Assembly (NCBI GenBank): GCA_040220235.1
Contig: JAVJTO010000118.1
DNA: 64,000 bases
Source of the DNA: Coleofasciculus sp. B1-GNL1-01
Lineage (GTDB): Bacteria; Cyanobacteriota; Cyanobacteriia; Cyanobacteriales; Coleofasciculaceae
Strand: one strand, 5' to 3'
Under the pieces are notes generated by a model. It ran no database searches. It was given only the letters and a program-made list of their open reading frames with translations, and was not told where the DNA came from. This document shows positions 4,561-34,821 of this stretch, piece by piece. A program made the position numbers and the translations under genes. Numbering within the stretch: position 1 is the stretch's first letter; each line of letters opens with the position of its first letter.

Positions 4561-4666
4561 CTTTATCCCTCTAGCGTATTCCGGACTATGATGAATCCAT
4601 TATAGTTTTGTACCGTTTCGTTGACAAATGACGAATGACGTAGCTTGCTTCTCGATGAAAGCGAGT

Positions 4667-4745
4667 ATGACAAATGACAAATGACAAATGACAAATGACA
4701 AATGACCAATGACAAATGACCAATGACAAATGACCAATGACCAAT
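4667..4745. repeat. STRR heptamer tandem repeat (TGACAAA/TGACCAA)n
   Basis: About 11 tandem 7-mers; cyanobacterial short tandemly repeated repetitive sequence. Confidence 0.9.
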
Positions 4746-6347: not shown

Positions 6348-6884
6348 TTGCTTCCTTACCCCATAATAAAAATGACAACTGAAGGAAAAGTCCTCGCTAT
6401 TCTTTTGATGCAATTTAGTCTTCCTCCTGTCCCCGCCATGAAAGCTGTGGACGCTTGGTTAAAAGAGCATCCCCAGGAAAATTGGGACAGGTTGAAAGAA
6501 TTATTACACCAGAAAAAAATAACCCTGGTTAACGGAAAGCTGGCAACAATAACCCAACAGAGTGTCCCAAATTCAGGTAAGGGTGTCACCCCCTCTCAAG
6601 GGAAGCAAGCTGTCCATTATTCTCAGTCACGACAACCTCAGCCACCATCGGTTAAAACATTTCGATTTCGTGGGGTCACGTATCATAAAGTTGAAATGCC
6701 TCCAATTCAGCACTTTACGATGATTGATCCAACCATTCCACCGGACGTTTCCCAACCCAACCCTAATGATGATATACCCGCCTCTGATCCTCAAATCGTG
6801 AACTTTCATGAATACGCAGAACGCAAGAAGCGATCGCAGGAAAATCAGTTGAATCAGACAGAGCGATCGCAACAACAGGGGTAA
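6348..6884 (+). CDS. Hypothetical protein (true start probably 6372 or 6408)
   Basis: 178-aa ORF between convergent genes; low-complexity Q/P-rich sequence with an FRFRGVTY motif. Confidence 0.55.
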   Translation: MLPYPIIKMTTEGKVLAILLMQFSLPPVPAMKAVDAWLKEHPQENWDRLKELLHQKKITLVNGKLATITQQSVPNSGKGVTPSQGKQAVHYSQSRQPQPPSVKTFRFRGVTYHKVEMPPIQHFTMIDPTIPPDVSQPNPNDDIPASDPQIVNFHEYAERKKRSQENQLNQTERSQQQG

Positions 6885-9541: not shown

Positions 9542-9551
9542 TAAAAATTCT

Positions 9552-13723: not shown

Positions 13724-15136
13724 TTATGTCATTGTTTTTTGATAAAATTGCCAGGTTTGTTCGATATCCTGTCTCATGCGCTGTCGCAACTCATTCGGGA
13801 ACATGACTTCTACCTTGGGTCCCCAAGCGCGGAGTCGCATGATTACGGTATTGTCCTGATGCCGATAGCGAAGTGCGTAATAAGCGGCATCAGAATAGGT
13901 GTGAATATGAGCTAGGATCTGTCGGGGATTGGGTAAGTTTAAGTGTTCAATTAATACCAGTGCTTCTTGGTAACTATCCAGTTTCTCAAAAGTCGGATGA
14001 CGGAAGGAGTTGTCGATGTAACGCTGGGCAAAATCAGCATCAAACCGCAGCAGGGTTAAGTCGGATTTTTCATAGAAATCAAAGCCATAAGCGGCGTCTA
14101 ATTCCTGTTGAATATAAGCAGGCGCATAGTTTTCCGGATGGTTGATAATCTCTGATTTTGAGAAAGGGAGATCGGGAGTATCCCAAGGCAGTTTTTGATA
14201 CTTGCTTATCCGTTCTAAACGGTAGTTATACCATCCCACTGGCGCTTGGGTTGCTGTTTTATGCGGTCTTTGACCAAAGGCGCAGAGGTAGTAAGCTCTC
14301 TGATAATAATACAGGCAAACTGGATAAATGGTGTAGTTTTTAGTTTGATTTAAGGAAGCACTGTGATAGGCAATTTGCAGCGGTGGGGTAGGCGTCTCTT
14401 GCCAAATTTCTTTGAGGCGATCGGCTAAATCCGCTGAGGTTTCCCGCAATTCTTCCTTAACTACATAGTCATGATGGATAAATAAGCGTTGTTCGCCATT
14501 AATTTTTGTGAATAACAGTTGGGCAATAGTCGATACATCATTGGTAAAAAATCCTAAGGTTCCTGCATAGGAAAAATTAGGGTCGGTCGTGAATGGTTCA
14601 AGGATAGCAGCCGTTGACCGTTTGCGGAATTTGTGAATTGGCTTTTTGGTTGTTGTTTGGGGATTGATCAGTTGTCGCTCTAGGAACGGAGTTTTAAGTT
14701 GAGACAACTGAGTTAGGTGATTGCGTAAGGTACGGTCAGTTGCCGAAAAAATGGCAGTTGATAAGAGTTTGTCAATATCATTTCCCTCTAACGTATATCG
14801 AGATTTTAAGGTAGCAATGAATTGATTGGTGAAGGATTCGGTATATTCGGGAAATAGCCAATCGGAGAAAGAACGAGTTTTATAATGATCAACTTTTTCC
14901 TTGAACTTCTTTAACCAATCCGCACAGTTAAAGAGTTCAGTTTCAAATTCGATAAAGAAGTGACTATCGCGGTCATACAACGACCGGATCATGACCCACC
15001 GTCGAGCGTCACAGGCTAAAAGTGTGAGGCAATTTTTGGATTGGGTTGGAGCCGATGGATGATTAGAAACTTGCAATAGTTCTGGTACAAGGGTTTCTAA
15101 GCAGTGGACGGTGGGCAGAAATTCTTCAGCAGACAT
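13724..15136 (-). CDS. CRISPR-associated WYL-domain regulator (cyanobacterial TIGR03985/Sll7078-like)
   Basis: HTH-like TDRTLRNHLTQL; WYL region YPVCLYYYQRAYYLCAFG...WYNYRLERI; C-terminal MRLRAWGPKVEV; divergent from the cas operon; start chosen at ATG (MSAEEFLP). Confidence 0.8.
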   Translation of the reverse strand: MSAEEFLPTVHCLETLVPELLQVSNHPSAPTQSKNCLTLLACDARRWVMIRSLYDRDSHFFIEFETELFNCADWLKKFKEKVDHYKTRSFSDWLFPEYTESFTNQFIATLKSRYTLEGNDIDKLLSTAIFSATDRTLRNHLTQLSQLKTPFLERQLINPQTTTKKPIHKFRKRSTAAILEPFTTDPNFSYAGTLGFFTNDVSTIAQLLFTKINGEQRLFIHHDYVVKEELRETSADLADRLKEIWQETPTPPLQIAYHSASLNQTKNYTIYPVCLYYYQRAYYLCAFGQRPHKTATQAPVGWYNYRLERISKYQKLPWDTPDLPFSKSEIINHPENYAPAYIQQELDAAYGFDFYEKSDLTLLRFDADFAQRYIDNSFRHPTFEKLDSYQEALVLIEHLNLPNPRQILAHIHTYSDAAYYALRYRHQDNTVIMRLRAWGPKVEVMFPNELRQRMRQDIEQTWQFYQKTMT

Positions 15137-15336
15137 GGAGTGATGGGAGGTAATGACTAGCTTCTGATTATAGTCGTTGCTGGTAGCCCCCTTTTCCAAC
15201 AGATTTAATGTCTATATGTAGTGGACTGACACACAGGACTTACGCAAAAACGCTACATATAGTAGGGGCACGGCAATGCCCATTGGTGTCAACTTAAGCT
15301 CAACCCCTCTCCCCCAGCCCCTCTCCCACGCCGGGG

Positions 15337-16795
15337 CTATGCATTACCCACATCTTTCTTAAACATTGTGCGATCGCGTCGCGATCTGGCTGGACTGAGC
15401 AGAGTTGTGCAGTCTAAGTCAGTACAGTTTCTGGTTTTGGGATGCGATCGCGTTTCGGGATGGGATTGCCTGACTGGATGTATCAGGAGCCAGAGCCTAT
15501 AATTCCTGCTTGTGGCATTCGCATCTGAAAATAAATAAATGAAAGAACTTCGATGGGCAGCCCAAGAATTGCGGTACACCAACTTAGGTGATGCTCGGCG
15601 AAATCAACGCCTGGTTAAAATTGTCGAAGACTTAGCCGAACAGCCTAATGAAAGCATTCCAACGGCTTGTGGAAATTGGGCAGCAACCAAAGCTACCTAC
15701 AACTTGTGGAAATCACCACGCATCAAACCCGATGACATCCGTTCGTCTCATCAAATCAGTACTGTGGAGCGGTCAAAAGAGCATAGTATTGTCTTGGCAA
15801 TACAAGACACAACAGATCTCAACTTCACTCACCATGAAAGTCAATGCTGGCTAAGTGCTTCCGTTGCGACCGAGTTAGCCTTACCTGAAGACATAGAGGT
15901 GGTGACGATTGCCGATCGCGAAGCGGATATTTACGATTTATTTGCCATGACTCGTCAAACGCGATCGCATCTATTGATCCGAGGTACTCATAATCGTCGT
16001 GTTGACCATCAAGCCAAGTATTTGCACGCCAGCATTGAGCAAGCGCCAGTAGCTGGATTTGTCACCATTACTGTACCTCGTAACGGGAGGGCGACCCCAG
16101 AGGCAAGCTACCCTAACCGTTCGCTTTGCTACCCTAGATATACAACCACCTCGCCATCATCTTCAAAGAGCTAAACTCTCTCCAGTTACTCTTCAAGTGG
16201 TATTAGCCACGCTCATCTAATCCACCCAAGGATACCACACCCATTTGCTGGTTATTGTTAACAACCCTACCTGTCAATAGTTTTGATGAAGCTGTCCAAT
16301 GTATACGATGGTACTCTTTTCGCTGGCTGATTGAACGCTATCACTACGTTCTTAAAAGCGGTTGTCACCTCGAACAACTACAATTGGAAACACGAGAGCG
16401 TATTGAGTGTGCTTTGGCTACTTATTCCATTGTTGCTTGGCGCTTATTGTGGCTCACTTATCAAGCTCGCTCTAGTCCTGATACACCTTGCGATACGGTT
16501 TTACAGACCCATGAGTGGCAAGCTCTCTATTGTACTATTCACTCTCAACCTATACCTCCACAACAACCTCCTTCTCTCCGGCAAGCCGTTGGTTGGATTG
16601 CTCAACTCGGCGGTTTCTTAGGGCGTAAACATGATGGTGAACCTGGAGTCAAAACTATTTGGCGCGGTGAAGAGAGACTACAAGATATCGCTGCTACCTG
16701 GCAGTTACTTCACTCCTAGCTATTAAGTTCCATTTTAACTAACGGCTTGAAAACGCGATCGCACAATGTTTAAGAAAGATGTGGGTAATGCATAG
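15337..16795 (+). mobile_element. IS4-family (IS50/Tn5-like) insertion sequence, decayed
   Basis: 43-bp perfect terminal inverted repeats CTATGCATTACCCACATCTTTCTTAAACATTGTGCGATCGCGT (15337-15379 / 16753-16795). Confidence 0.92.
15539..16719 (+). pseudogene. IS4-family transposase pseudogene (internal deletion and frameshifts)
   Basis: LGDARRNQRL, QDTT, ADREADIY, RWLIERYHYVLKSG and LGGFLGRKHDGEPG motifs split over two ORFs (15539-16174, 16255-16719); the segment between QDTT and ES.WL is unusually short. Confidence 0.88.
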
Positions 16796-17267: not shown

Positions 17268-17491
17268 AAGCTGTAATGCATTTAAATGGGGTATTAGTAG
17301 CGAGCAAGATGCTCAATGTAGTGAGCAAGATGCTCACACTACGACAAGGATCTCGCAATTCTTGACATTATGGTTTAAATGCCGAACAGCTCAAAGCTTT
17401 GTCAACACTGACATCATCTAGGTTCGTAGTCAGCACTTTAGTGCCTTAAGCGCTGAAGCGCTGACTACAAACTTTTAAATTAGCGACATTC
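17268..17491. mobile_element. Two adjacent MITE/REP-like elements (17268-17392 AAGCTGT family; ~17401-17491 GTTCGTAGT...CTACAAAC family)
   Basis: Homology to 13427-13577 (inverted) and to 37431-37505 and 40645-40734. Confidence 0.7.
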
Positions 17492-17587
17492 ACCTCCTAA
17501 CAAGAGGTTATGACCCGACATTCGGATGTTCGTCAAGGCTGACTTTGCCAGGTTTTAACACCTTTACCTCCTCACAGAGGTCGTGAC
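17492..17587 (-). CRISPR. Minimal CRISPR array: one intact 36-nt repeat (GTCACGACCTCTGTGAGGAGGTAAAGGTGTTAAAAC, 17552-17587), one 37-nt spacer (17515-17551), one degenerate truncated repeat (17492-17514)
   Basis: Repeat has GT...AAAC ends and an ACCTC/GAGGT hairpin; the second copy matches 19 of 23 aligned positions at 73-bp spacing; abuts a leader-like sequence and cas genes. Confidence 0.7.
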
Positions 17588-17770
17588 CCCTCCATTTAAA
17601 ACCCTTACCCCGCCTAATGTCCAGAGGCAGTTTGCGAAGCTTACCGATTTTGTCCTTCCAAACCCCCCACAATTCCCGAAAAAAATCGCTAGAATCCTTA
17701 CCAGACAAGGCGGCGAAGTTTCCAACGAAAGAATAGGCATTTCAGCGATTTTGGTTAACCCTCGCAATTT
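17588..17770 (-). promoter_or_regulatory. CRISPR leader-like sequence
   Basis: Directly adjoins the repeat; resembles cyanobacterial leaders (TTCGCAAACTGCCTCTGGACA...GTAAGGGTTTTAAA on the minus strand); has a diverged homolog at 24505-24665. Confidence 0.6.
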
Positions 17771-17852
17771 GTGCAATGGTCACAAGACCCGAAACAACCC
17801 ATTGAGTCAAGCTATAGTTGAAAAAGTATCATCCGGCTACCCCCCAACTATC

Positions 17853-19373
17853 ATGCTACCCTTACCCACAGAACTCCCCCAGTGGTACACCGTTGAACCC
17901 ACAGAAGAGAAAGGATGGACTCCCAAAACCAGTGACATTCTAGAAAAGCCGGAAAATCAAGATATCATTCAGGCGTGGAAAGGAACATTTGAACCAAACC
18001 CCTCCCATACCTACACCATTCGTCTAGATAACCTACAAGTTATCAGTCCCATTCAAGTCGGAGGTGGACGCTTTCCTGAAGGTGGCATATTACCCGCCCA
18101 AATTAGCGGTGTTCCCTATATTCCGGGTTCCAGTGTTCGAGGTGCTTTCCTGCATTGGCTACAGGTGAAATGGCAGGATTTATCCACGGCTGAACAAGAA
18201 TTTTGGTCAACTCTATTGACCGCTAATCGCCAAAGCTGGCAACCGCGAACGATTCGATTTGAAAGTATTCGTTTAAAAAACCTTAAACCCTTTCCCCTAA
18301 ATCCGCAACAACCCTGGCAGGTTTTCAATCAAAAAAGCAACAAACTAGGGATACAATGGCAAGTTTCCCCTCACCATCCGCTTCGTCCTAGTCCCGATAG
18401 ATTCTGTCTGCAAGTCTTACTCCACGATAATCCCACTCCTGAACAAAAATCTTGGCTGGAAAACCGACTCACAGAAATGTTACAAGAACAAGGACTTGGA
18501 CGAGGTACAGCTTCCGGTTTTGGTCGCTTAGCCAAATCTGTACCATCGGGACAGTGGGAACTCCAATTAACTGGAATGAAACCCGGTGTTCAACCCCACA
18601 GTCCCAAAGATAAACAAATAGGCAAATATCGTTGGAGTCCGCAAGTGCTACGGGCTAACTTACGCGGTTATTTTACTCGTTTAGCCCTTTATTTATTAAA
18701 CCGCGATCGCGCCGAAAAATTGACGAGTATAATTTTTGGGGGGTTGGGGTGTCCGGCTCAATTAAGGTTAACCAGTTACCTGAAGCAGGTTGTCAAACCC
18801 CGTCCTGGAGATATACCCAGCAATAGTTACACCAATATTCCCGCCCAAGATGCTCATCAAACCTGGCGAATTTCTGTTAACTGTAATTCCCCCTTTCAAG
18901 ACTTAGTGGGTGGATTACTGGATTTAGCGAGTCGTTTGGGGGGAATGGGTCCGGGTTGGCGCAGACCCCCGCATCAGTTGGAACGGTTTAATGGGTTTCG
19001 GGGGAGTGAATTTACCGTCACGCCTGCGAACTCTGAGCAACTGTTAAATGAGTTAATTGATTCTCTCAAAGATGTGATTAGGAATTTGGCGCAAAGGTAT
19101 GGCTTACGGCTTTTGCCTAATCCAGTTTCTGTTCCAGGTAGTATTATCAGCATTTGGCGGGGAAAATCAGACCAGTGGCGCGATATTGTCCATGGTGTTT
19201 GCAGTACCACGGCTAAGAATCGTCCGGATTGGTGTGGAAATACTCAGAATCGCCCGTCGGGTTATGCTGTGCGACACTATGAAAGTTATTGTCTGATTAC
19301 TGTATTTGATTCTAGGGTGGAAGCGACGTTAAGACGACAAGGTTTTCAGTCGATTTGGTCGGGGATATCTTGA
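17853..19373 (+). CDS. Type III-B RAMP fusion protein, Cmr6-like plus Cmr1-like (two Cas7-group domains)
   Basis: N-part SPIQVGGG...GVPYIPGSSVRGAF...QGLGRGTASGFG; C-part LRANLRGYFTRLAL...IFGG...LGGMGPGWRRP. The upstream extension from 17583 runs through the leader, so the start is set at ATG 17853. Confidence 0.8.
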   Translation: MLPLPTELPQWYTVEPTEEKGWTPKTSDILEKPENQDIIQAWKGTFEPNPSHTYTIRLDNLQVISPIQVGGGRFPEGGILPAQISGVPYIPGSSVRGAFLHWLQVKWQDLSTAEQEFWSTLLTANRQSWQPRTIRFESIRLKNLKPFPLNPQQPWQVFNQKSNKLGIQWQVSPHHPLRPSPDRFCLQVLLHDNPTPEQKSWLENRLTEMLQEQGLGRGTASGFGRLAKSVPSGQWELQLTGMKPGVQPHSPKDKQIGKYRWSPQVLRANLRGYFTRLALYLLNRDRAEKLTSIIFGGLGCPAQLRLTSYLKQVVKPRPGDIPSNSYTNIPAQDAHQTWRISVNCNSPFQDLVGGLLDLASRLGGMGPGWRRPPHQLERFNGFRGSEFTVTPANSEQLLNELIDSLKDVIRNLAQRYGLRLLPNPVSVPGSIISIWRGKSDQWRDIVHGVCSTTAKNRPDWCGNTQNRPSGYAVRHYESYCLITVFDSRVEATLRRQGFQSIWSGIS

Positions 19374-19382
19374 TTGAGCAAC

Positions 19383-19501
19383 GTAATAGGTTTCTAATGT
19401 AAATTAGGATGGGTGGCGAAGACAGCGCTTACTACGAACGCCTAAGTAATAGGTCTCTAGTGTAAATTAGGACAAGTAGCGCTAAAGCGCTTACTACGAA
19501 C
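19383..19501. repeat. Imperfect tandem duplication, period 63 bp, each unit ending in a REP-like AGCGCTTACTACGAAC
   Basis: GTAATAGGTYTCTARTGTAAATTAGGA...AGCGCTTACTACGAAC at 19383 and 19446. Confidence 0.8.
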
Positions 19502-19512
19502 GGAGTTTGATC

Positions 19513-20973
19513 ATGCCACGTTATTTAATTCTGCAAGTTTTGGGGAGTAGCGATATTCTTGTCGATTCGGAATCAGGGACTAAAAAGTTAGAGGCTTGTT
19601 ATACTTTGGCAGATGTCCAGGCGGCACAACAATGGAATGATGAGGACTTTATTCATCAACTCGAACGGGTGGATTTTCCTCTGATTCGCCAAGTTTGGCA
19701 AGAACAGAAAAATCAGGCTGAACTGTATTGGGGAATTATTTTAACCAATCAGGTGGACTGGATGCAACACCAGGATGAGTCGGGTGAAGGGTGGAATGAT
19801 ATTGTTACCTCGGATGGATATTGGTGGCGCAATATCTTAGAAAACTGGTGTCAGCAGCAGGGGATTAATTATTATCCGATTTTCCTTAATGTTGGTGCTG
19901 ATATTCCCAAAGGGGCGGCGGATTGGGACGGAATGGCAAAGCAGATTGATCCTTTATTAAACGGATTAATTCAATTTGAGTCGAGTCGGATAGTTTTTAC
20001 TCCCCCAGCGGGACAAACAATTCCAGTTGATCAGATTCTTGTCCAGCACAGCAGTGGAACTCCGGCTTTGAGTAGTGCGCTGTACCTTTGGGGAATTGAG
20101 CAAAAGTTAGCTAAACGAGAGATTGAATTTATCTATATTTCTCGACAAGACTCAATTTCGTATTTCCATTCTGGCACTCATTGGCAGTGGCGATTAAAAG
20201 TGCCTCAAATTAGGCAGTTGTTGGCAATTCAAGATTTCGCTGGGGCGAATGAATTGTTAGCGGATCATCCCGATCAAACGCTGCGGGAAACCTGCCAATA
20301 TCTCGATCGCGCGGTCTCCTTTAATCTCGCCCAACTCAATCTAGGCTTAACTCCCCAAGATGAAGTCATCGAACGGATCAGTATTGCTTTGTGGAGTGAA
20401 CAAGCCTTTCGCGATCGCGGACAGTGGATGCATTGGTATTTGAGAGTGGCGGGGGCGTTTGAACTCGCGATCGCTTGTTTAATTATTCAGCGAGGATCGG
20501 GGAATTATCGATGGAATAAAGAGAAGGGTAAGACGTTCTTAGAGTACACTGACCCGAATACAGGAAATACGGATAAATTTAATCGGAATATTGGCATTAA
20601 AAAGAGAGTGACTGATTTATTAAGTCACGGATCAACGTCAAAATATAAGGTTGACAAAATTCAGTCTAACCCCGATTGGGATAAGTTCAAGGAGTTTTAC
20701 TGTGATAACCAGTGGCAACTCGATGCTCAAACCCAAAACAGTTTTATCTATCTCAGAAATGACTTATACCATGCTTTGCTGGGGGACAGTATTGATAAAA
20801 TTTTAGATGCTCAAAAAGAAGCTTGCGGATCAGTCAATCATCCCGATCATCCCTCAGAAGTTGCCGTGCAGCAACTGCGCTATATTATCGAATTGGCGGG
20901 GTTATCGTCCCAGGTACAGCAGCGAGTTCAGGCGTATGAATGTAAGGTTAATGATATTAAAATATGCCTCTAA
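19513..20973 (+). CDS. CARF-HEPN type III accessory ribonuclease (Csx1/Csm6-like)
   Basis: Rossmann-like start ILQVLGSSD, CARF-type HSSGTPALS loop, C-terminal R-x4-H motif RNDLYH (20755-20772); lies inside the cas operon. Confidence 0.75.
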   Translation: MPRYLILQVLGSSDILVDSESGTKKLEACYTLADVQAAQQWNDEDFIHQLERVDFPLIRQVWQEQKNQAELYWGIILTNQVDWMQHQDESGEGWNDIVTSDGYWWRNILENWCQQQGINYYPIFLNVGADIPKGAADWDGMAKQIDPLLNGLIQFESSRIVFTPPAGQTIPVDQILVQHSSGTPALSSALYLWGIEQKLAKREIEFIYISRQDSISYFHSGTHWQWRLKVPQIRQLLAIQDFAGANELLADHPDQTLRETCQYLDRAVSFNLAQLNLGLTPQDEVIERISIALWSEQAFRDRGQWMHWYLRVAGAFELAIACLIIQRGSGNYRWNKEKGKTFLEYTDPNTGNTDKFNRNIGIKKRVTDLLSHGSTSKYKVDKIQSNPDWDKFKEFYCDNQWQLDAQTQNSFIYLRNDLYHALLGDSIDKILDAQKEACGSVNHPDHPSEVAVQQLRYIIELAGLSSQVQQRVQAYECKVNDIKICL

Positions 20974-21311: not shown

Positions 21312-21371
21312 TGGTGAGACTTTTTTCTCCCATCTCCCTAATCCAAATCAACCTGATCTAAATCAAAGCCA

Positions 21372-23870
21372 ATGAATCTGCAAGATTGGTTAATTAAGCA
21401 GCAAAACTTATATCCAATTCTTCCGCAAGCCGAACCTCTCCTATCTACCCATCCCGTGAGTGGAGAATGGCAAAATTCCTCTCATCTAAAAAACCAGGTT
21501 TGGTGGGGAGGTGGGGCGAGTCAGGAGGCTTGTCAGCAAATTGATTTGGGCAATACTCCTACCCTGACCCAGATTGGAGTAATTAGCTTTGGTCCAGTTC
21601 AATCCTTTCTGGGGGGTGGACAACGGCTGAGAGATTGGGCGGTGGCGTCTTGGTTGTGTCATTACCTATCTGCTGTTCTCATTTATCGCTGGGAGGAGTG
21701 GGGTGGTAAGGTGTTGTTACCCCTGCACCATTCCTCCCCCTTGGTCAATTGGTTGCGAGGTTCTACCTCAGTTGATCAGCGGTTTTGGCGTCCGGAATTG
21801 CCCAATGTGGTGACGGGAGTATTTCCCGAATCCGATAGTTGGTTAGAGAACGTCCAGTCACTGATCCAACAGGAATGGGGACGATTACTCAAAGGTTTAG
21901 AACAAGCCGCGATCGCACACAATTCCCAACTCCTCAATGGGATTGGCTGGCGGGTGATTCATCGCGATCATCAATGTCTGTGGTCAGTTTACACTGAGTC
22001 TACTCCCATCCGCGTGGGACAGATTGTTGAGGATATCGCCAACCTACACCAAGGAATTGAATCTCAGAAACTGGGTCGCGATTGGCAAGGAACCTGGTGG
22101 GGGGGACGAACTAGCCCAAGTGCAGGTCATTTATCCATTTGGCATCCCGGCTTGCAACCGATTGACCAAGGCGGAACCTGGGGATTAGAGAAACCCATCC
22201 TGGATCAATGGTGGGAACGGGCGGCAAAAGAGAGTAAACTCAAAGGACTCTTTTCAGAAAGCGATCGCCTCAACAGTATTGAAATGCTGAAGCGGTTAGC
22301 CTCAGTGCCAGATATTATTGTGCCAACCCTAAAACAACTCTGGGGGAAAACGCCACCGGATTGTCCTTGGGGACAATTTCCCGATCGCACAGCGGCGGCG
22401 GCGGCTTGGATACCCACCCAGCCTCAGGTTAATCTCGATTTGTGGAATCAAACCCTGCAAGGGCTAGAACGGGATTATTTTTCAACCTTACCCCAAAAAA
22501 CCCAATGGGGTATGCCCAGGGCAGATCAAAACGGACAATTTACTCATCCCCGTAGCTTAGAACGGCGCAATATAGAGGATAAAGAACTCTTAGAAATTTG
22601 GCAAAGCGACATCCCCAACAGTTGGCAAAGCACCATTGAATGGACAGTCGGCTGGCGGGGAGATGGGGACAATATGGGCAAATGGCTGTCTGGCAAACAG
22701 TATCAAACCCTGAAATTACCTTGGTCAAAATGGCATCCGAACGCTGAACAGATCACCCACTATAACTTAGGCATCCAACCGCCGAACGTACCCAACCAAG
22801 CCCGACAACTAGAGTTACCCCACATCCTCGACTTGTCCCTATTATTCAGTTTATGGAATGAACTTCTCTATGCTTTAACCGAAGTGCATCACGATAGCAA
22901 AGTCATTTTTGCTGGTGGGGATGATTTCCTCTTACTCGGACCCCTCACCGAAGCCATTTCCCTAACCCATGACCTACACGCCCTTTGGACAGGCAAACCC
23001 TCTCCCTTAATTCAACCTCTCACTCCCCCAGTAGACGGCTGGGTACAGTATCAGGATCAACTCTATCCGATACCGGGGGAAAAAATGCACTTCAGCTTAG
23101 GTATTGTCATTGCCCAACGGCGAATTCCCCAATCCCTTTGGCATCGCGGCTTAAATCAGGCATATAAACAGGCAAAATCTCAAGGACGTAACCGCGTCTG
23201 TATCCAAGTTTTATTTAATAGTGGTCAATCATTACAGTGGGTTTGTCCCTGGTCTTTATGGAATTTACTCATGCCCATTGAACCCACAAAAGAAGGCAAA
23301 ACCGAACTCAATGCTTGGGAGAAACTATTAACCTATTTGGAAAGCACCCGCTTGCGGGATGTATCTATCTTTACAGTGGGAGACTTAATCGATACTCTCT
23401 GGGCGAGTGTGGGTATTCCCCTCACCTGGGAACAGGTATTAACAGTAGGTCGCCGCGATTATCATGTTTATCTGCGCTGGTTGAAATTAAACAATGTCCA
23501 GCATTGCACCGATACTTTACCCCGACCCGAACAAATCCCCAATAATCGGCTGATTATAGTACCCGATGATAGCATTAACATCATCGTCGATATGGGATTA
23601 GTGCGGCAACCGAGGGTCAGTTTAAAAAACCTGGATGAGATTGATCAAGCCGCAGAACGTCAAGAGAATCCCGATGAAAACACCAGTTTAGTCAATAATC
23701 TGTTTTCAGTCGAAGGCTTTCCTCCAGGGGCAGTCTTTCTGATTAGTTGGACACCCAGGGGTAAGGTGGAAGAGATAGAGAAATGGGAGAAATTTCTCGA
23801 CGATGAACATTTTCTGGGGGGATTGTGGAGTGTGGGGTATGGGCGAATTCAGATTTCTCAGATTGAGTAG
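21372..23870 (+). CDS. cas10: Cas10/Cmr2 (no HD domain, intact GGDD) fused in frame to the C-terminal half of a Cmr4/Cas7 RAMP
   Basis: ISFGPVQSFL...RDWAVASWL (Cmr2 N-term), GDGDNMG, VIFAGGDD (22914-22925), AKSQGRN; the last ~135 aa (LVRQPRVSL, NLFSVEGFPPGAVF, FLGGLWSVGYGR) are Cmr4-like. Confidence 0.85.
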   Translation: MNLQDWLIKQQNLYPILPQAEPLLSTHPVSGEWQNSSHLKNQVWWGGGASQEACQQIDLGNTPTLTQIGVISFGPVQSFLGGGQRLRDWAVASWLCHYLSAVLIYRWEEWGGKVLLPLHHSSPLVNWLRGSTSVDQRFWRPELPNVVTGVFPESDSWLENVQSLIQQEWGRLLKGLEQAAIAHNSQLLNGIGWRVIHRDHQCLWSVYTESTPIRVGQIVEDIANLHQGIESQKLGRDWQGTWWGGRTSPSAGHLSIWHPGLQPIDQGGTWGLEKPILDQWWERAAKESKLKGLFSESDRLNSIEMLKRLASVPDIIVPTLKQLWGKTPPDCPWGQFPDRTAAAAAWIPTQPQVNLDLWNQTLQGLERDYFSTLPQKTQWGMPRADQNGQFTHPRSLERRNIEDKELLEIWQSDIPNSWQSTIEWTVGWRGDGDNMGKWLSGKQYQTLKLPWSKWHPNAEQITHYNLGIQPPNVPNQARQLELPHILDLSLLFSLWNELLYALTEVHHDSKVIFAGGDDFLLLGPLTEAISLTHDLHALWTGKPSPLIQPLTPPVDGWVQYQDQLYPIPGEKMHFSLGIVIAQRRIPQSLWHRGLNQAYKQAKSQGRNRVCIQVLFNSGQSLQWVCPWSLWNLLMPIEPTKEGKTELNAWEKLLTYLESTRLRDVSIFTVGDLIDTLWASVGIPLTWEQVLTVGRRDYHVYLRWLKLNNVQHCTDTLPRPEQIPNNRLIIVPDDSINIIVDMGLVRQPRVSLKNLDEIDQAAERQENPDENTSLVNNLFSVEGFPPGAVFLISWTPRGKVEEIEKWEKFLDDEHFLGGLWSVGYGRIQISQIE

Positions 23871-23917
23871 GCTACGTTTCACTTACATTATAAAATGGTC
23901 TTATTTTAATTATTGAT

Positions 23918-24358
23918 ATGCCCAGAAAACCTGTCGAAACCTATGAATTAGATCGAGAAGTCTTTCAACGGCTTAAACAAGGAAAAGATACCTTTGATGA
24001 TTGGCAGGGGGCAGCTAGTGGGATTGGGGATTATGTCGCGAGTTGGGGTGTAGAACGCTTCTGGGCGATGTCTCGTTCGCCAATTTTACGAGGAGGAGAA
24101 ACCTCCAAAGAAAAGGATGAGAACGAGGGGCGGCGTTATTTTGCCTGGGGAGTGGCGCGAGAAGTCTTATGTAAAATTGTCGGGAATGATTTAAGAATTC
24201 GTCAGGATATGACGACAGAAGAGTTTCAGAATCGATTTAGAGATTTGGAGTTTAATCAGCAGGTTTTGTTAACGGATTTACTCATGGAAATTTCTGAAAC
24301 GATTCAGTTTTGGACGATGCGATTAAAAGATGCCCGTGAGAGTAAAATTGAGCCTTAG
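23918..24358 (+). CDS. cmr5: Type III-B small subunit Cmr5 (Cas11), cyanobacterial type
   Basis: 146-aa helical protein with YELD, WGVERFW and terminal IQFWTMRLK motifs; directly after the Cmr4-like segment. Confidence 0.7.
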   Translation: MPRKPVETYELDREVFQRLKQGKDTFDDWQGAASGIGDYVASWGVERFWAMSRSPILRGGETSKEKDENEGRRYFAWGVAREVLCKIVGNDLRIRQDMTTEEFQNRFRDLEFNQQVLLTDLLMEISETIQFWTMRLKDARESKIEP

Positions 24359-24504
24359 TCGGTCAGTAATTGTAGGTTGGGTTGACGAAGGAAACCCAAC
24401 TTATTAGCAACAGAAGCAGAATATCTCTCAAATTAGGAAACTGGCGACCAACCCAAGCCGGGACAAATTTGTTACCTGTTCCCTGTTAAGAGTTCCCTTT
24501 CCTA

Positions 24505-24665
24505 ACCAAAATGTCCAGCCCTCATGGGCGAGGGGGTCTGATTTTGTGCCGACAAATGCCCAAAAATCTGCTCCAAAAATCGCTGAAACCCTTACAGGAC
24601 AAGGCAGCGAGAGAGTCTACGAAAGAATCAGCCTTTCAGCCATTTGCCCACCCCCTCGCCGAAAC
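24505..24665 (-). promoter_or_regulatory. Second, orphan CRISPR leader-like sequence
   Basis: AAAAATCGCTGAAACCCTTACAGGACAAGGCAGCGA...ACGAAAGAAT...TTTCAGC...CCCTCGC is colinear with 17681-17765; no repeat found next to it. Confidence 0.55.
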
Positions 24666-27825: not shown

Positions 27826-27948
27826 GGTTTTGCTCTATCCTTGAGACTCGTCAAGGGAATTTTAGCTTCTTTTGGCGATAGGCGGCGTTGTAGAACACAA
27901 TGGTAGGGGCACGGCATTGCCGTGCCCCTACAGGTATTGCCGTGCTTT

Positions 27949-28413
27949 ATGTCCAAATCTTTATCCATTATCGGCTGGCGGGAACGAGTCGCCTTGCCGG
28001 ATCTAGGAATTTCCCAGATTAAAGCTAAAATTGACACCGGGGCGCGTTCCTCCGCCTTACACGCCTTTGATGTCGAAACCTTTTCACGGGATGACAAAAC
28101 CATGGTTCGGTTCAAAGTCCATCCCTATCAACGCGATACCCATCGCACCGTATCCGCCGAAGCGGAACTGATTGACCAGCGACAGGTTCGCAATTCTGGG
28201 GGTCACGCCCAGTTACGACCCGTGATCCAAACTATGGTAGAACTAAACGGGGAGCGCTGGTTGATTGAACTCACCCTGACGAACCGAGATGTCATGGGAT
28301 TCCGAATGCTGTTAGGGCGTCAAGCTGTCCGCAAACGCTTTTTAGTGGATGCGGGTCGGTCTTTTGTCCAAAGTGCAACCGGGAAGCGCAAACTTAAGCA
28401 AACGACTCTATAG
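27949..28413 (+). CDS. RimK-associated retropepsin-like protease (RimB / 'ATP-dependent zinc protease' family)
   Basis: [22 protein letters not shown] and RMLLGR motifs. Confidence 0.88.
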
Positions 28414-28421
28414 TTCTTGAT

Positions 28422-29327
28422 ATGAAAATAGCTATCTTGTCCCAAGATGCTTCGCTATATTCCACGCGACGCCTCAAGGAAGCGGGGGAAGCGCGGGGTC
28501 ATGACATGCGGGTGATTAATTACCTGCGTTGTTATATGAATATTACGTCTCATAAGCCCAAAGTGGTGTATCAAGGGAAAGTTTTGGAAGAGTTAGATGC
28601 GATTATTCCTCGCATCGGTGCGTCTAAGACGTTTTATGGGACGGCTGTGGTGCGCCAATTTGAAGTGATGGGGGTGTTTACGGCGAATGAATCCCAAGCC
28701 ATTTCTCGTTCTCGCGATAAGTTACGCTGTCTTCAGATTCTCTCCCGTGAAGGTGTGGGACTTCCGGTGACGGGGTTTGCTAATTCGACTCAAGATATTG
28801 ATGGGTTAATTGAGATTGTTGGCGGTGCGCCTCTGGTGATTAAATTGCTGGAAGGGACTCAAGGGATTGGGGTGGTTCTCGCGGAAACTCATCAAGCGGC
28901 GAAGTCGGTGATTGAGGCGTTTCGCGGTTTAGATGCCAATATTTTGGTGCAGGAGTTTATTAAAGAAGCGGGGGGTATGGATATTCGCTGCTTTGTGATT
29001 GATAACAAAGTTGTGGCGTCGATGAAGCGACAAGGCGCACCGGGGGAATTTCGTTCCAATCTGCATCGGGGTGGTAATGCTGCACAAATTAAGTTAACTC
29101 CTGAGGAACGTAGTACGGCGGTACGGGCGGCGAAAGCGATGGGATTGAGAGTGGCGGGTGTGGATTTGTTGCGATCTAATCATGGTCCGGTGGTGATGGA
29201 AGTTAACTCATCCCCTGGTTTAGAAGGGATTGAAAACGCGACGGGTGTGGATGTGGCGGGGAAAATTATTGACTTTTTGCAGAAAAATGCAGCATCAGGA
29301 AAAACCCGCGATCGCATTCAGTATTAG
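28422..29327 (+). CDS. rimK: RimK alpha-L-glutamate ligase (ATP-grasp)
   Basis: [34 protein letters not shown] and [12 protein letters not shown] motifs. Confidence 0.95.
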
Positions 29328-29466
29328 TTTGTCCTTTGTCCTTCGTCATTTGTCCTTTGTTGGTTGTATGCAAAAGTTTAGTTAAAGAAAGGGTGAGGGA
29401 AGAAATGATAATCGTGAAACCCGCCCCTACACACAGACGCGCCATGGCACGTCTCTACATTGAACT

Positions 29467-30423
29467 GTGAATCATGAAACTCTAACAATTGGTGGGATTA
29501 CGGTTGCGCCTGGAGAACGGAAGCGCACAGAAATTCCGGTTGCCCGCTTACCTACGCAAACGCTGCTTTCATTACCGATTACTGTGATTAATGGTGTGCA
29601 GGCGGGTCCACGATTGTGGATGAGTGCGGCGATTCATGGGGATGAAATTAATGGGGTGGAAATTATTCGCCAAGTCTTAGAACGGATTAATCCGTCTCAA
29701 CTTCATGGTGTCCTGATTGCGGTGCCAATTGTTAATGTTTTTGGCTTTATTGAACAATCCCGTTATTTACCCGATCGCAGAGATTTAAATCGTTCCTTTC
29801 CTGGTTCCCCCCGTGGTTCTCTAGCCTCTCGTTTGGCAGACTTGTTTATGACTGAAGTAGTGAGTCGCTGTACCCATGGGATTGACTTGCATACGGCGGC
29901 TCAACATCGCACAAATTTACCCCAAATTCGGGCGAATTTGGATGACTCAGAAACCTATTCCTGTGCTAAAGCCTTTGCTGCACCCCTGCTGATGCATTCA
30001 ACGGTACGGGATGGATCATTGCGTCAAGCGGTAACCAAGCGAGGTATCCCGATTCTCTTGTATGAGGGGGGTGAGGCGTTGCGATTTGATCCGGATGCGA
30101 TCGCAATCGGTGTAGAGGGTATCCTCCGGATGATGGTGGGGTTAAAGATGATTGAGTTGACGTTCTCTGAGTCTTTGCACCCATCACTAGAAGTTAAGCA
30201 AAGTAAGTGGGTACGAGCGCCTCGGAGTGGGATTTTGCGCCTCACTGTTAAATTGGGTCAGCGCGTTGACAAAAAGCAAATTTTATGCATTATTTCCGAT
30301 GCCTTTGGTGAGAATAGCATTAAAGCGTATGCACCCTTTGATGGTTTAGTGATTGGTCACACGCAGAATCCGTTGGTGAATCAGGGGGATGGGATTTTGC
30401 ATTTAGCGGTTTTGAGGGATTAG
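29467..30423 (+). CDS. Succinylglutamate desuccinylase/aspartoacylase family (M14-like) deacylase
   Basis: AAIHGDEING, DLNRSFPG, IDLHT and YEGGE motifs. Confidence 0.88.
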   Translation: MNHETLTIGGITVAPGERKRTEIPVARLPTQTLLSLPITVINGVQAGPRLWMSAAIHGDEINGVEIIRQVLERINPSQLHGVLIAVPIVNVFGFIEQSRYLPDRRDLNRSFPGSPRGSLASRLADLFMTEVVSRCTHGIDLHTAAQHRTNLPQIRANLDDSETYSCAKAFAAPLLMHSTVRDGSLRQAVTKRGIPILLYEGGEALRFDPDAIAIGVEGILRMMVGLKMIELTFSESLHPSLEVKQSKWVRAPRSGILRLTVKLGQRVDKKQILCIISDAFGENSIKAYAPFDGLVIGHTQNPLVNQGDGILHLAVLRD

Positions 30424-30597: not shown

Positions 30598-33500
30598 GTG
30601 CCAGGAACAATCAACCTGATGAAATCTACTCAGTGGTGCAAAATCTGCCTGTTAACTCTCTTAGCTGGAACAGTAAGACTGGTAATAGCTGCTCCAGTAT
30701 TGGCTCAATCCATTATCGAAGCCACAGGCGTTAACAGTACTGGAACAACTGTTATTCAAAATGGCGATAACTTTGATATTCAAGGTGGCAGTTTGTCAAA
30801 GGATGGAGCGAATTTATTCCACAGTTTCCAAGAATTTGGCATTGATTCAGATCAAATTGCTAATTTTCTGGCAACGCCGGAACTGAGAAATATTCTGGGA
30901 CGAGTGATTGGCGAAAATCCTTCTATTATTGACGGCTTGATTCAGGTAACCGGGGGAACAGCAAATTTATATTTAATGAATCCGGCGGGAATTATTTTTG
31001 GCGCGAATGCTCAACTGAATGTCCCGGCTGATTTTACCGCAACAACGGCGACAGGAATTGGGTTTGGCAATAACTGGTTTAATGCATTGGGTGATAATAA
31101 TTATCGGGACTTGGTTGGAGAACCCAGTCAATTTGCCTTTGATTTATCCCAACGGGGAATCATTATTAATGCAGGCAAATTAGCAGTTGAACCTGGACGG
31201 GATTTAGCCCTATTGGGTGGACAAGTGGTGAATACAGGAACGTTGACGGCATCTGGGGGAAGGATTGCAATCGCGGCGGTGCCGAATTCTCGTTTGGTGA
31301 AAATCTCTCAATCGGGACAAGTGTTAAGTTTTGAGGTGGAGTTACCGAGGAGTAATGCGGGGTTAATGTTACCGACAAACCCTCTGGATTTAGCCGCGTT
31401 GTTAACAGGTCCAGGGAATACCGTGGAAACTGGGGTCGAGGTAACCCCATCGGCAGAGATACAGACGGATGCTGGGGGAATTATACCGAATCAGGTTGGG
31501 GTTGCGATCGCGTCAGGAAAAGTTGAGTCGGGTACAGGTCATATTTCAATTATCGGTAGGGGTGGAACCGAGGAGAATACGATTTTAGGTATTCCCGGTA
31601 TCCAAATTAGTCAGGGTAGCCGTGTCGAAGCAATTGGACAAGGAACAATTACTCTCAACGGTACAGGAGGAAGCGGGGGAATTTTCAGCGAAGATAATCC
31701 AGGAAATCGGGGAATTTGGATTAAGAATACTACAGTATCTTCCCAAGATGGCACCATTCATTTCATTGGCACTGGGGGTTCTGGGGACAATGGCTTACAT
31801 TATGGTGTTTCTATTGGTAATCAGGGGGGAATTGTCCAGTCAACGGGAACAGGAACGATTATTTTTGAGGGGATTGGCGGGAATGGAGGAGAAGGCACGT
31901 TACATGGTAGTCAAGGGATCAAACTTGACCAAGCGGGTTTAGTTCGTACCCAAGATGGGGATATTCAGCTAATTGGTGAGGGGGGAACTGGTTCAAATCA
32001 ATTTAACCATGGGGTTGAACTGTTTCGCAGTTCTATTGTTGAGGTAACCGGAACAGGAAGTATTACGATTGAGGGAACTGCTGGCGCGGGAATAACAGAA
32101 AATCATGGGATTAGGGTTCAGGAAATAGATTCTAACCAGAGTAATACCTCTCGAATTACCGCCAGGAATGGTGCGATTTCTCTAATTGGTGTGGGTAAGG
32201 GAACAGGAGACAATAACTATGGCATTGATTTAAGAGGGGGTGGTGTGGAGACAACCGTCGGTGGAAATCTAACCCTTGAGGGAATCGGTGCTAATGGTGC
32301 AGCCGGAATTAATGTGCAAGATGGTTTTATTCAAGCCAGAGGAACGGGAGAGAGTACGACAACGTTGATTGCGGATCAAGTTCAGGTGATTGATGATCCG
32401 AATTTCCCGCAAACGCCACAAGTCCAAGGAACAGGAATGGTGGTGTTATCTCCTCTTGACCCGACTGTCGATATAACCATTGGAGATACAACGAATAGTA
32501 ATAGTAATACTTGGAATCTGGATGCCGAGAAACTGAATCTATTCCAAGATGGATTTGAGCAACTTGTGATTGGTGGGGAAGAGAATCAGGGTACAATTAC
32601 GGTGGCAGATGACATCACCTTTAAGGTTCCAGTAATTTTGCGATCGCCTGTTGGTTCAGGGGCAATTGATACCACAGGCTTCACGATAACGGGTACTCAA
32701 GATGCCACGATTACACTGCAAGCGAATCAACGGATTACGACAGGTACAATTATTAATCCAGGTCGGGCAATTACTTTAACCAGTAACGGGTCGATTGATA
32801 CTCGTAGCGGCATCCTCGATAGTCATGCTCAAACTAACAATGGGGGAACGATTAGTTTAAGCGCTGTTCAAGATATTACCACGGGCGATATTAATGCCAG
32901 TTCGGGAAATGGTCAAGGGGCAACGATTACATTAACCAGTCGTGATGGAGAAATTAATACGAATGATCTCAACAGTTCTGGATTCAGTGGCGGTGATATT
33001 TTAATTGATGCGGCGACAGCAATTACAACCGGAAAAATTAATAGTAGTGGTACTATCGGTGATGGTGGTAATGTTACTTTAGACCCTATTGGCGATATCC
33101 AAGTTACCTGGATCAACGCCCAAGGCGGAAATAATGGTCAAGGCGGTCAAGTTGATATCACTGCTGGTCAATTTTTCCGCGCTACGGGAACATTTATTGA
33201 CCGGAATGGGATTAGCGCTAGCATCTCTACGGCTGGAGGATTGGGTGGAGATTCTATCACGTTGAGACATGGTGGAAATGGTGTCATTCCCTTTATCGTG
33301 GGTGATGGGACAACGAATGGAACCAGGGGAACGATTACCAGTGGCGATTTCACGATTTCTCCAACTCAATCTTTTCTATTTACTCATCAGGTGGGCAATA
33401 TTCAAATTATCAGCGTTGATTCTCCACCAATTTTGCCTCCGGAGTCCCCCACTTCAGAAACTAACGCTTCTATCAATCCTGTTAATTTACTCAAACCTCT

Positions 33501-34821
33501 GACTGAACCCACTTTACCTCCCGACAAAGACGAACCGCCGGAAATCGAAATTGACACCCAGGTTGCTAAATGGGAGGAATCGTTAACCCGTGACTATGAA
33601 ACCTATTTAGGACTCCAAGATACTGCCATTTTGACTCTGGCAGATGCCCGGGCAACTTTACATCGTATCGAACAAGCTACAGGGGCTAAACCTGCACTTA
33701 TCTACGCCGTTTTTGTACCCACCACAGTAGCGCCCCAAACTCGCAGCCAAGACAGTCAATCTTCAGCCAAGGAGTCTCCCTCACGAGATAGTGATCAACT
33801 CGAAATTATCCTCGTCACCGCCAATGGAGAACTCATACGCCGCCCTATACCGGGTGCAACCCGCGAAAAAGTAATGGATACTGCCAAAAAATTGCGCCGC
33901 GCCGTTACGGATACTCGCATTCCTCGTCCCTATCAACGTTATGCCCAACAGTTGTATCAGTGGTTAATTGCACCCTTAGAAACAGAATTAAAGACGCAAG
34001 AGATTAATAATCTAGCCTTCATTATGGATCAGGGATTACGTTCCCTACCTCTGGCTGTTTTGCATGATGGGGATAAATTTATCATTGAACAATATAGTAT
34101 CGGTTTCATGCCTAGTCTTTCGCTTACCGATACCCGCTATCGGGATGTGAGAGATGTGCAGGTTTTAGCTATGGGTGCGTCTCAATTTACGGATCAAAAT
34201 CCCTTACCGGCTGTACCTACTGAATTATCCGCGATCGCGACTCAATTATGGCAGGGGAAATCGTTCCTTAATGAAACCTTTACCGCCGCTAATTTGAAAA
34301 CAGCCAGGGCATCTCAACCCTTTGGAATCATCCATTTAGCCACCCATGGTGAATTTAAATCGGGTCAACCCAGTTCTTCTTATATTCAGTTTTGGGATCG
34401 TAAACTCAGACTGAGTGATATCCGCCAATTGGGATTACATGACCCCACGGCTGAACTGATGGTATTAAGTGCTTGTCGGACGGCTTTAGGGAATGAAGAA
34501 GCGGAGTTAGGATTTACGGGATTAGCGGTACAAACTGGGGTTAAATCTGCCCTAGGAAGTTTATGGTATGTCAGTGATGAAGGCACGTTAGCCTTAATGA
34601 CAGGTTTTTATGAACAATTACAGCAATCACCTCTGAAAGCCGAAGCATTACGACAGGCACAATTAGCGATGATTCGCGGACAAGTGCGATTAAAAGATGG
34701 TTACTTGATCACGCCAAATCGTCGAATTGCTTTACCGCCAGCATTAGCTAATTTGTCAAAAAAGGAACTCACTCATCCTTATTATTGGAGTGCGTTTACT
34801 TTAGTTGGAAGTCCGTGGTGA
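30598..34821 (+). CDS. Filamentous haemagglutinin N-terminal domain / beta-helix protein with C-terminal CHAT (caspase-like) domain
   Basis: NLFHSFQEF, LYLMNPAGIIFG; Gly-rich repeats; IIHLATHGEF, VLSACRTA, SLWYVSD and HPYYWSAFTLVGSPW (start may be ATG 30619). Confidence 0.9.
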   Translation: MPGTINLMKSTQWCKICLLTLLAGTVRLVIAAPVLAQSIIEATGVNSTGTTVIQNGDNFDIQGGSLSKDGANLFHSFQEFGIDSDQIANFLATPELRNILGRVIGENPSIIDGLIQVTGGTANLYLMNPAGIIFGANAQLNVPADFTATTATGIGFGNNWFNALGDNNYRDLVGEPSQFAFDLSQRGIIINAGKLAVEPGRDLALLGGQVVNTGTLTASGGRIAIAAVPNSRLVKISQSGQVLSFEVELPRSNAGLMLPTNPLDLAALLTGPGNTVETGVEVTPSAEIQTDAGGIIPNQVGVAIASGKVESGTGHISIIGRGGTEENTILGIPGIQISQGSRVEAIGQGTITLNGTGGSGGIFSEDNPGNRGIWIKNTTVSSQDGTIHFIGTGGSGDNGLHYGVSIGNQGGIVQSTGTGTIIFEGIGGNGGEGTLHGSQGIKLDQAGLVRTQDGDIQLIGEGGTGSNQFNHGVELFRSSIVEVTGTGSITIEGTAGAGITENHGIRVQEIDSNQSNTSRITARNGAISLIGVGKGTGDNNYGIDLRGGGVETTVGGNLTLEGIGANGAAGINVQDGFIQARGTGESTTTLIADQVQVIDDPNFPQTPQVQGTGMVVLSPLDPTVDITIGDTTNSNSNTWNLDAEKLNLFQDGFEQLVIGGEENQGTITVADDITFKVPVILRSPVGSGAIDTTGFTITGTQDATITLQANQRITTGTIINPGRAITLTSNGSIDTRSGILDSHAQTNNGGTISLSAVQDITTGDINASSGNGQGATITLTSRDGEINTNDLNSSGFSGGDILIDAATAITTGKINSSGTIGDGGNVTLDPIGDIQVTWINAQGGNNGQGGQVDITAGQFFRATGTFIDRNGISASISTAGGLGGDSITLRHGGNGVIPFIVGDGTTNGTRGTITSGDFTISPTQSFLFTHQVGNIQIISVDSPPILPPESPTSETNASINPVNLLKPLTEPTLPPDKDEPPEIEIDTQVAKWEESLTRDYETYLGLQDTAILTLADARATLHRIEQATGAKPALIYAVFVPTTVAPQTRSQDSQSSAKESPSRDSDQLEIILVTANGELIRRPIPGATREKVMDTAKKLRRAVTDTRIPRPYQRYAQQLYQWLIAPLETELKTQEINNLAFIMDQGLRSLPLAVLHDGDKFIIEQYSIGFMPSLSLTDTRYRDVRDVQVLAMGASQFTDQNPLPAVPTELSAIATQLWQGKSFLNETFTAANLKTARASQPFGIIHLATHGEFKSGQPSSSYIQFWDRKLRLSDIRQLGLHDPTAELMVLSACRTALGNEEAELGFTGLAVQTGVKSALGSLWYVSDEGTLALMTGFYEQLQQSPLKAEALRQAQLAMIRGQVRLKDGYLITPNRRIALPPALANLSKKELTHPYYWSAFTLVGSPW

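Follow-up and report, generated by a model that had tools for sequence, protein, structure and literature searches.

Has a type III CRISPR effector been reduced, in one cyanobacterium, to a Cas10 subunit that carries half of a Cmr4/Cas7 backbone protein at its C-terminus, or is this arrangement the trace of an accident? The question is raised by a 64,000-nucleotide (nt) stretch of contig JAVJTO010000118.1 of Coleofasciculus sp. B1-GNL1-01 (assembly GCA_040220235.1), hereafter the window, where an uninterrupted open reading frame (ORF) of 832 amino acids (aa) lies on the plus strand at 21372-23870. A preliminary description, made from the letters of this stretch, had left two readings side by side: either an in-frame deletion removed the end of cas10, cmr3 and the 5' half of cmr4, or the ORF is a real compact Cas10-Cas7 fusion that keeps cyclic oligoadenylate (cOA) synthesis and cannot cut target RNA. 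The comparison with related loci leaves us strongly inclined to the first reading: the ORF is very probably an accidental chimera, the scar of a deletion of 1717 base pairs (bp) in a type III-B operon, and the locus is broken.

The 832-aa ORF joins most of Cas10 to half of a Cmr4-type protein

Pfam recognised Cmr2_N at residues 70-173 of the ORF (1e-9) and the Cas10/Cmr2 palm2 domain at residues 430-610 (1.2e-11); the tail, residues 725-826, corresponded to positions 101-188 only of the 189 positions of the RAMP profile (8.3e-5, above the gathering score). The best NCBIfam matches were Cmr2 and Csm1, both under cut-off (33 bits for Cmr2 against a cut-off of 79). Every motif listed in the preliminary description was found, and in the order given: GDGDNMG (430-436), GGDD (515-518) and GRRDYH (693-698) in the Cas10 part and, after the switch, VYLRWLK (699-705), LVRQPRVSL (743-751), NLFSVEGFPPG (776-786) and LGGLWSVGYGR (815-825). 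The ORF is thus a GGDD-bearing Cas10/Cmr2 large subunit with cyclase palm domains, continued in frame by a Cmr4-type RAMP of which only the C-terminal half is present, and on this point Pfam agrees with what had been described. An HD domain was not reported by Pfam in the Cas10 of this family. It had also been stated that the locus holds no cmr3 and no stand-alone cmr4, and indeed neither a cmr3 nor a whole cmr4 was found in the window's locus by Pfam, by NCBIfam or by comparison with 17 related loci.

A blunt deletion relative to a sister genome created the ORF

A search of 5.8 billion proteins with the 832-aa query returned 94 homologues, 92 of them close (E <= 1e-119) and mostly 695-824 aa long, with some shorter fragments. 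None of the 94 covered more than 85% of the query; all matches ended near residue 700 and left the tail uncovered. The best homologue, a 733-aa Coleofasciculus protein (P0002), was 97% identical over residues 1-702 and then diverged completely. The 733-aa homologue is carried by a 6561-bp contig of a sister Coleofasciculus genome (locus L001), whose ORFs are cas10 (1698-3899), a 341-aa ORF (3963-4988) and a 268-aa ORF (5107-5913). Positions 1646-3790 of L001 align with window positions 21320-23464 at 97.2% identity, and positions 5508-6409 with window positions 23465-24366 at 95.5% identity, the second block abutting the first in the window. What the window lacks is L001 3791-5507, or 1717 bp, which in L001 holds the last 36 codons of cas10, the 341-aa gene and the first 401 nt (133 codons) of cmr4. 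The alignment backs the deletion proposed at the outset, and we show by this comparison that the ORF arose through the loss of 1717 bp that all relatives retain. Near-identical flanks around an intact cas10-cmr3-cmr4 order in L001, together with metagenome contigs that bridge the breakpoints (see below), are what a strain-specific deletion would leave. The position given earlier for the switch, about nt 23460, was nearly exact, falling within five bases of the actual breakpoint between 23464 and 23465. The region around the junction reads as follows.

21372..23464, plus strand: cas10/cmr2 part of the chimera, codons 1-697 and two bases of codon 698, without the last 36 codons of the 733-aa parent
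23464..23465, plus strand: deletion junction, blunt, with 1717 bp missing relative to L001 3791-5507
23465..23870, plus strand: 3' part of cmr4 (a 268-aa Cmr4-type RAMP when whole), from the last base of codon 134 through the stop codon, in frame with cas10
23918..24358, plus strand: gene in the cmr5 position, 146 aa, intact, 97.3% identical to the L001 orthologue
24367..24561, no strand assigned: extra segment of 195 bp, absent from L001 (16 bp there), starting with a genome-dispersed short repeat

Codon 698 of cas10 is cut after its second base and codon 134 of cmr4 before its third, and the frame runs on through the join. It was kept by chance, because the cut phases in the two codons complement each other, and the join is in frame because cas10 and cmr4 lie in different frames. 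When both breakpoints were compared, no microhomology or repeat was seen (0 nt shared), and nothing points to a microhomology- or repeat-mediated deletion. Dispersed short intergenic repeats do occur inside the cas operon, at L001 3901-3956 and 5014-5113, away from the breakpoints. These repeats, and the one at window 24367-24406, have many copies in all 8 genomes of the genus and some in other families, and they give depth spikes in metagenome contigs. A blastn search of the genome with the 195-bp segment gave 55 rows, most of them hitting its first ~40 nt.

The gene that follows the chimera had been described as cmr5 directly after it. A gene is present there, but its name stands on position and orthology: the 146-aa gene lies 3' of cmr4 in all 17 related loci, and its product had no match in Pfam, NCBIfam or PDB profiles (E <= 1), a Pfam scan of the alignment members being also empty. 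We therefore call it cmr5 by position only.

The deletion removed a Cmr3-like gene and the most conserved parts of Cmr4

We asked what the missing 1717 bp encode in the sister genome. The 268-aa ORF of L001 matched Pfam RAMPs (7.8e-21), and its top NCBIfam match was Cmr4 over the full length (3.6e-12, 46.7 bits, under the cut-off of 87). The 341-aa ORF had no match in Pfam, NCBIfam or a profile search of PDB sequences (E <= 1). An AlphaFold model of this protein, built from 13 orthologues (mean predicted local distance difference test score, pLDDT, 68.9; predicted template modelling score, pTM, 0.72), had as top PDB fold matches 9x25_C (2.8e-7), 3x1l_B (4.6e-7), 3w2v_B and 4h4k_A, with a template modelling (TM) score of about 0.5; we take these, partly from the entry titles, to be Cmr3/Csm4 chains of solved type III complexes. 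By its model, the 341-aa protein is predicted to have a Cmr3/Cas5-type (Cmr3/Csm4) fold. A Cmr3 (Cas5-type) gene beside cas10 is thus absent in the window and present in L001 and 16 other relatives.

The losses in the two truncated genes are also substantial. The Cmr4 (Cas7) backbone is incomplete in the window, where only residues ~134-268 are left, fused to Cas10; in a tblastn search of the strain's own genome with the L001 268-aa protein, only residues 131-268 matched at this locus. Residues 1-133, which were lost, contain 60 positions invariant among 17 orthologues, including HIGG, Asp18, SRGNNNP and IPGSSLRGAL, and the N-terminal invariants removed comprise a glycine-rich motif, PGSSLRGALR and Asp18, the last of which is likely to be the residue that cleaves target RNA. 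In the lost C-terminus of Cas10, 11 of the 36 residues are invariant in the 17 orthologues. The deleted DNA was not found elsewhere in the 8.66-megabase, 172-contig genome, where only paralogues of 23-31% identity and short dispersed repeats were recovered.

The fused form is restricted to one contig

To place the window among its relatives, 17 cyanobacterial loci (L001-L017) with Cas10 identities of 53-97% were compared. In all 17, cas10, the cmr3-like gene, cmr4 and the cmr5-like gene follow one another as distinct genes, and among these relatives and the window only the window lacks cmr3 and Cmr4 residues 1-130. A Cas10-Cmr4 fusion was seen in none of the 17 loci and in none of the 94 protein homologues. 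A csm6-like gene lies 5' of cas10 in 16 loci (the contig of L007 starts at cas10), and a large RAMP gene is present in 15 (the contigs of L001 and L011 are short). The cluster formed at 90% identity around the 832-aa protein has nine members, four of them full-length at 732-733 aa, and the 832-aa form is on one contig, the window's own. At the DNA level, the locus was found in one other of the 8 species representatives of the genus, namely the genome of L001.

Contigs from public sequencing runs (X1-X4) were also aligned with L001; X2 and X4 gave identical figures and are probably one data set. The left breakpoint is bridged intact by pieces of X1 (1615-3894) and X2 (1221-3915), the right one by pieces of X1 (5101-5922) and X2 (5084-5753), and X3 covers the cmr3-like gene (3918-4993). 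The intact form is therefore present at both breakpoints in metagenome contigs of at least two independent data sets.

Some observations on the relatives are worth recording in their own right. In the same 90% cluster (P0098, P0101 and P0096), two Cas10 pieces of 240 aa from other Coleofasciculus assemblies match residues 1-230 and both finish with the same 10 foreign residues, and a piece of 472 aa spans residues 261-732. These pieces suggest that cas10 was disrupted a second time, at another place, in other Coleofasciculus strains, and hint at repeated loss of the Cmr module in Coleofasciculus. Local damage or insertions are seen in further relatives: about 1.6 kilobases (kb) separate cas10 from the cmr3-like gene in L008 (12190-13781), and in L003 the match to the csm6-like gene is split in two (9303-9546).

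The array is missing and other Cmr-type loci are distant

A CRISPR array with a repeat of ~36 nt directly follows cmr5 in all seven relatives checked. There is none in the window or on its 97.6-kb contig, and a search allowing up to 3 mismatches did not find the array repeat of the relatives in the genome. The contig of L001 ends 160 bp past cmr5, too soon for this comparison. The possibility of cmr3 and cmr4 in trans had been raised in the preliminary description; a genome-wide search did find paralogues of both at two other Cmr-type loci, but no copies specific to this locus.

C101:12580-22026 (L093): Cmr-type locus with cas10 of 708 aa, Cmr3 of 362 aa, Cmr4 of 311 aa, a 131-aa ORF and a Cmr6-like 650-aa ORF
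C143:991-13126 (L092): Cmr-type locus with cas10 of 580 aa, a 380-aa ORF, a Cmr4-like protein of 331 aa, a 139-aa ORF, a Cmr6-like 592-aa ORF, a 570-aa ORF and two CRISPR arrays

A recent, inactivating deletion is the best explanation

Taken together, we propose that the ancestral operon would have consisted of a csm6-like gene, cas10 (733 aa), a cmr3-like gene (341 aa), cmr4 (268 aa) and a cmr5-like gene (146 aa), and that a single blunt-ended event would have joined cas10 to cmr4, with loss of the conserved C-terminus of Cas10, all of Cmr3 and the N-terminal half of Cmr4. Cmr3 is the Cas5 subunit, the partner of Cas10 in solved Cmr complexes, where it holds the 5' handle of the CRISPR RNA (crRNA), and Cmr4 is the backbone that binds and cuts the target RNA; target binding turns on the Cas10 cyclase. 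In a locus with no Cmr3, no complete Cmr4 backbone and no array, no crRNA-guided complex would be expected to assemble, and the synthesis of cOA by Cas10 upon target RNA binding would be lost, leaving the Csm6-like ribonuclease (RNase) without its activating signal. The event is thus most likely a recent, strain-specific, inactivating deletion, and the locus is most likely dead, by analogy with what is known of Cmr complexes.

We also looked for traces of selection in the remaining genes. The ratio of non-synonymous to synonymous rates (dN/dS, omega) against L001 was 0.135 for cas10 codons 1-697, 0.067 for cmr5 and 0.379 for the cmr4 tail, the last value resting on 13 non-synonymous and 9 synonymous differences, too few to conclude from. 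Changes were polarised with 15-16 outgroups, and those derived in the window versus those derived in L001 numbered 4 versus 6 in cas10, 3 versus 2 in the cmr4 tail, 1 versus 0 in cmr5 and 1 versus 2 in the csm6-like gene; two of the three window-derived changes in the cmr4 tail are the junction residues. Neither the dN/dS values nor the polarised changes, balanced between the two lineages, gave a clear sign of relaxed selection after the deletion. As the remaining genes carry no extra decay, the deletion is probably recent.

Several of these points weigh against a dead locus and have to be considered. The ORF is still open, the palm motifs GDGDNMG and GGDD are intact, and the flanking genes are under purifying selection relative to L001, as the omega values of cas10 and cmr5 indicate. 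Derived changes are balanced and nothing apart from the deletion itself speaks positively for decay; the selection data would fit either a recent loss or a retained function of the remaining parts. Moreover, none of the public runs contained at least half of the sampled words (the best reached 0.34), and the junction comes from one assembly.

This last point leads to the first rival explanation, an assembly artefact, according to which cas10-cmr3-cmr4 is intact in the strain and two points lying 1.7 kb from each other were falsely joined in the contig. In its favour, the joint 3790>5508 was not among the 8 joints listed in the contigs of the four metagenome runs, contigs that drop rare variants, and the exact 26-nt junction had no match in the metagenome contigs of the Joint Genome Institute (JGI), a scan that was powerless, as the control, the intact left boundary, also found nothing. 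We nonetheless consider an artefact improbable. The breakpoints share 0 nt and the dispersed repeats lie elsewhere, an assembler would have had no reason to collapse this stretch unless some reads spanned the join, and the junction lies 23 kb inside the 97.6-kb contig. The genome is rated 100% complete, yet none of its other contigs carries the deleted DNA, which would be expected to turn up in the assembly if the reads contained it. The 832-aa protein is also recorded under the sources NCBI, Logan and UniRef; this may reflect a second assembly, but one contig was counted and the point is not firm.

We then considered a genuine compact Cas10-Cas7 effector, keeping cOA synthesis without RNA cutting. 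The open frame, the intact palm motifs and the intact neighbouring genes for the Csm6-like RNase and the cmr5-like protein are compatible with it, but the comparison with relatives led us to reject this part of the preliminary description, and we regard it as highly improbable. The fused form is found on a single contig, in 0 of 17 loci, 0 of 94 homologues and 1 of the 9 members of its own cluster, and its parent form is only about 3-5% away in DNA divergence, which leaves no time for adaptation. The protein lacks the 11 invariant residues of the Cas10 C-terminus and the half of the RAMP domain with most of the invariant motifs of Cmr4, the remaining half would be unlikely to fold alone, and the locus has neither Cmr3 nor a CRISPR array. 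We also see only a very slim chance that the chimera is expressed and kept, its Cas10 cyclase core and half-RAMP tail signalling, alongside the large RAMP, the cmr5-like protein and the intact Csm6-like RNase, either with no Cmr3 and Cmr4 of its own or with subunits borrowed from the two paralogous Cmr loci. If true, this would be a natural type III system rewired by one deletion.

Least probable of all is that the deletion is real and the remaining genes work with Cmr3 and Cmr4 borrowed from the two other Cmr-type loci: C101 and C143 do supply paralogues, C143 has CRISPR arrays and the retained genes have low dN/dS, but these paralogues share only 23-31% identity with the lost proteins and type III subunit contacts are normally system-specific, Cas10 itself lacks its conserved C-terminus, and the low dN/dS would mostly date from before the deletion.

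An accidental chimera in a broken operon therefore remains the reading we favour. It provides one more case of CRISPR-Cas inactivation within a species complex, a defence locus broken in an ordinary way rather than a compact effector of a new kind, and it carries a lesson: an in-frame deletion can mimic a new domain fusion, and one close relative suffices to expose it.

Comparison with known type III systems

Natural fusions of type III subunits are known, namely Cas7-11/gRAMP in type III-E and Cas7-Cas5-Cas11 in type III-Dv, and a III-D fusion chain (8s9x_A) was among the fold matches of the 341-aa model. The 832-aa ORF resembles the III-E and III-Dv proteins in carrying several type III subunits in one polypeptide. 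On the contrary, those fusions join whole domains and are subtype-wide, whereas here a truncated Cas10 is joined to half a RAMP on one contig, the join cutting the RAMP domain at about position 101 of the 189-position profile. The conserved fusion of whole domains that marks natural fused type III effectors is thus not seen in the 832-aa ORF.

The intact relatives share with type III-B (Cmr) systems a Cas10 with Cmr2_N, palm2 and GGDD, a Cmr3-fold protein and a Cmr4-type RAMP, together with a small protein in the Cmr5 position, a Cmr6-like RAMP, a Csm6-like RNase and an adjacent array. The module of the window differs from this plan in having no Cmr3 and no array, and in its half Cmr4 fused to a Cas10 truncated at the C-terminus. 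The family itself is divergent, with NCBIfam Cmr2, Cmr4 and Cmr6 all scoring under the curated cut-offs, and public records name close relatives 'type III-B CRISPR-associated protein Cas10/Cmr2'. The intact relatives form a divergent branch within type III-B (Cmr), one that is already annotated as such. With a Cas10 in which no HD was detected, Cmr3-like and Cmr5-like proteins that sequence profiles fail to recognise, and both a large RAMP and a Csm6-like RNase, the family may be of interest to CRISPR specialists.

A further likeness is offered by Synechocystis sp. PCC 6803, where CRISPR3 is described as subtype III-Bv, a Cmr system that has no cas6 and relies on RNase E and RNase J to mature its crRNAs (PMC12464536, PMC3575380). 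As far as these descriptions go, it resembles our loci in belonging to a cyanobacterium and in being a type III system centred on Cmr2, beside its own array. A link between the intact relatives and Synechocystis III-Bv would be plausible, as a lead only.

The rest of the locus

Upstream of the chimera, the window holds the following features of the CRISPR-Cas locus.

13724..15199, minus strand: WYL-domain CRISPR-associated protein of the TIGR03985 family (NCBIfam TIGR03985, 2e-100, above cut-off)
15539..16719, plus strand: broken IS4-family transposase gene, left as two ORFs (211 and 154 aa) that separate the WYL gene from the cas genes
17583..19373, plus strand: large RAMP, 596 aa, with a Cmr6-like N-terminal RAMP domain and an extension (Pfam RAMPs, 2.2e-10)
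19507..20973, plus strand: Csm6-like CARF-HEPN accessory ribonuclease, 488 aa, apparently intact (494 aa in L001)

The product of the first gene also matched Pfam WYL (1e-5, above gathering) and, more weakly, WCX (1e-3, 19.8 bits, below the gathering score of 23.9), and is a probable regulator at the edge of the locus. Compared with the 405 positions of NCBIfam transpos_IS4_3, the two ORFs of the transposase remnant matched best over 112-203 and 256-405, respectively, and Pfam found Tnp_DNA_bind and Dimer_Tnp_Tn5; no second full copy of this transposase is present in the genome.

The large RAMP matched Cmr6 TIGR01898 below cut-off (1.9e-4, 21.7 bits against 51.1). Its orthologues align from about residue 90; therefore, the true start is probably the ATG near 17853. 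The orthologue in L002 is a RAMP of ~505 aa on the other strand; a 745-aa neighbour in that locus was considered as the counterpart and rejected, having no similarity. L013 was left out of the large-RAMP alignment, as the matched stretch (17866-19479) has 3 stop codons.

For the ORF at 19507-20973, an AlphaFold model (mean pLDDT 89.1) had Csm6 chains as its top Foldseek matches in PDB (6tug, 4.2e-10; 8pe3; 5fsh). The alignment of this family contains an invariant QHSSGTPA stretch and invariant residues R417-N418-x-L420-x-H422, which we take to be the HEPN R-x4-6-H motif. Csm6_CARF of Pfam matched at 0.005, below the gathering score, with a weak match in 6 of the 13 alignment members, and a profile search of the alignment against PDB sequences gave no match at E <= 1. 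The modelled fold identifies the protein as a predicted Csm6/Csx1-type CARF-HEPN RNase.

Between the large RAMP and the csm6-like gene, at 19383-19481, two 36-nt direct repeats with 83% identity lie 63 nt apart, and the contig of L001 starts inside the stretch matching this interval. A 21-nt tandem repeat of 4.8 copies at 42-141 recurs as its reverse complement, in 1.9 copies, at 17297-17336, some 250 bp before the start of the large RAMP ORF. Other tandem repeats of the window are at 45084-45784 (175 nt, 4.0 copies, 97% match) and 42241-42568 (147 nt, 2.2 copies). Beyond the Cmr genes, the intervals 27922-30423 and 30598-34821 hold a gene cluster with a RimB-like retropepsin, a RimK ligase and a succinylglutamate desuccinylase/aspartoacylase-like gene, followed by a 1407-aa ORF.

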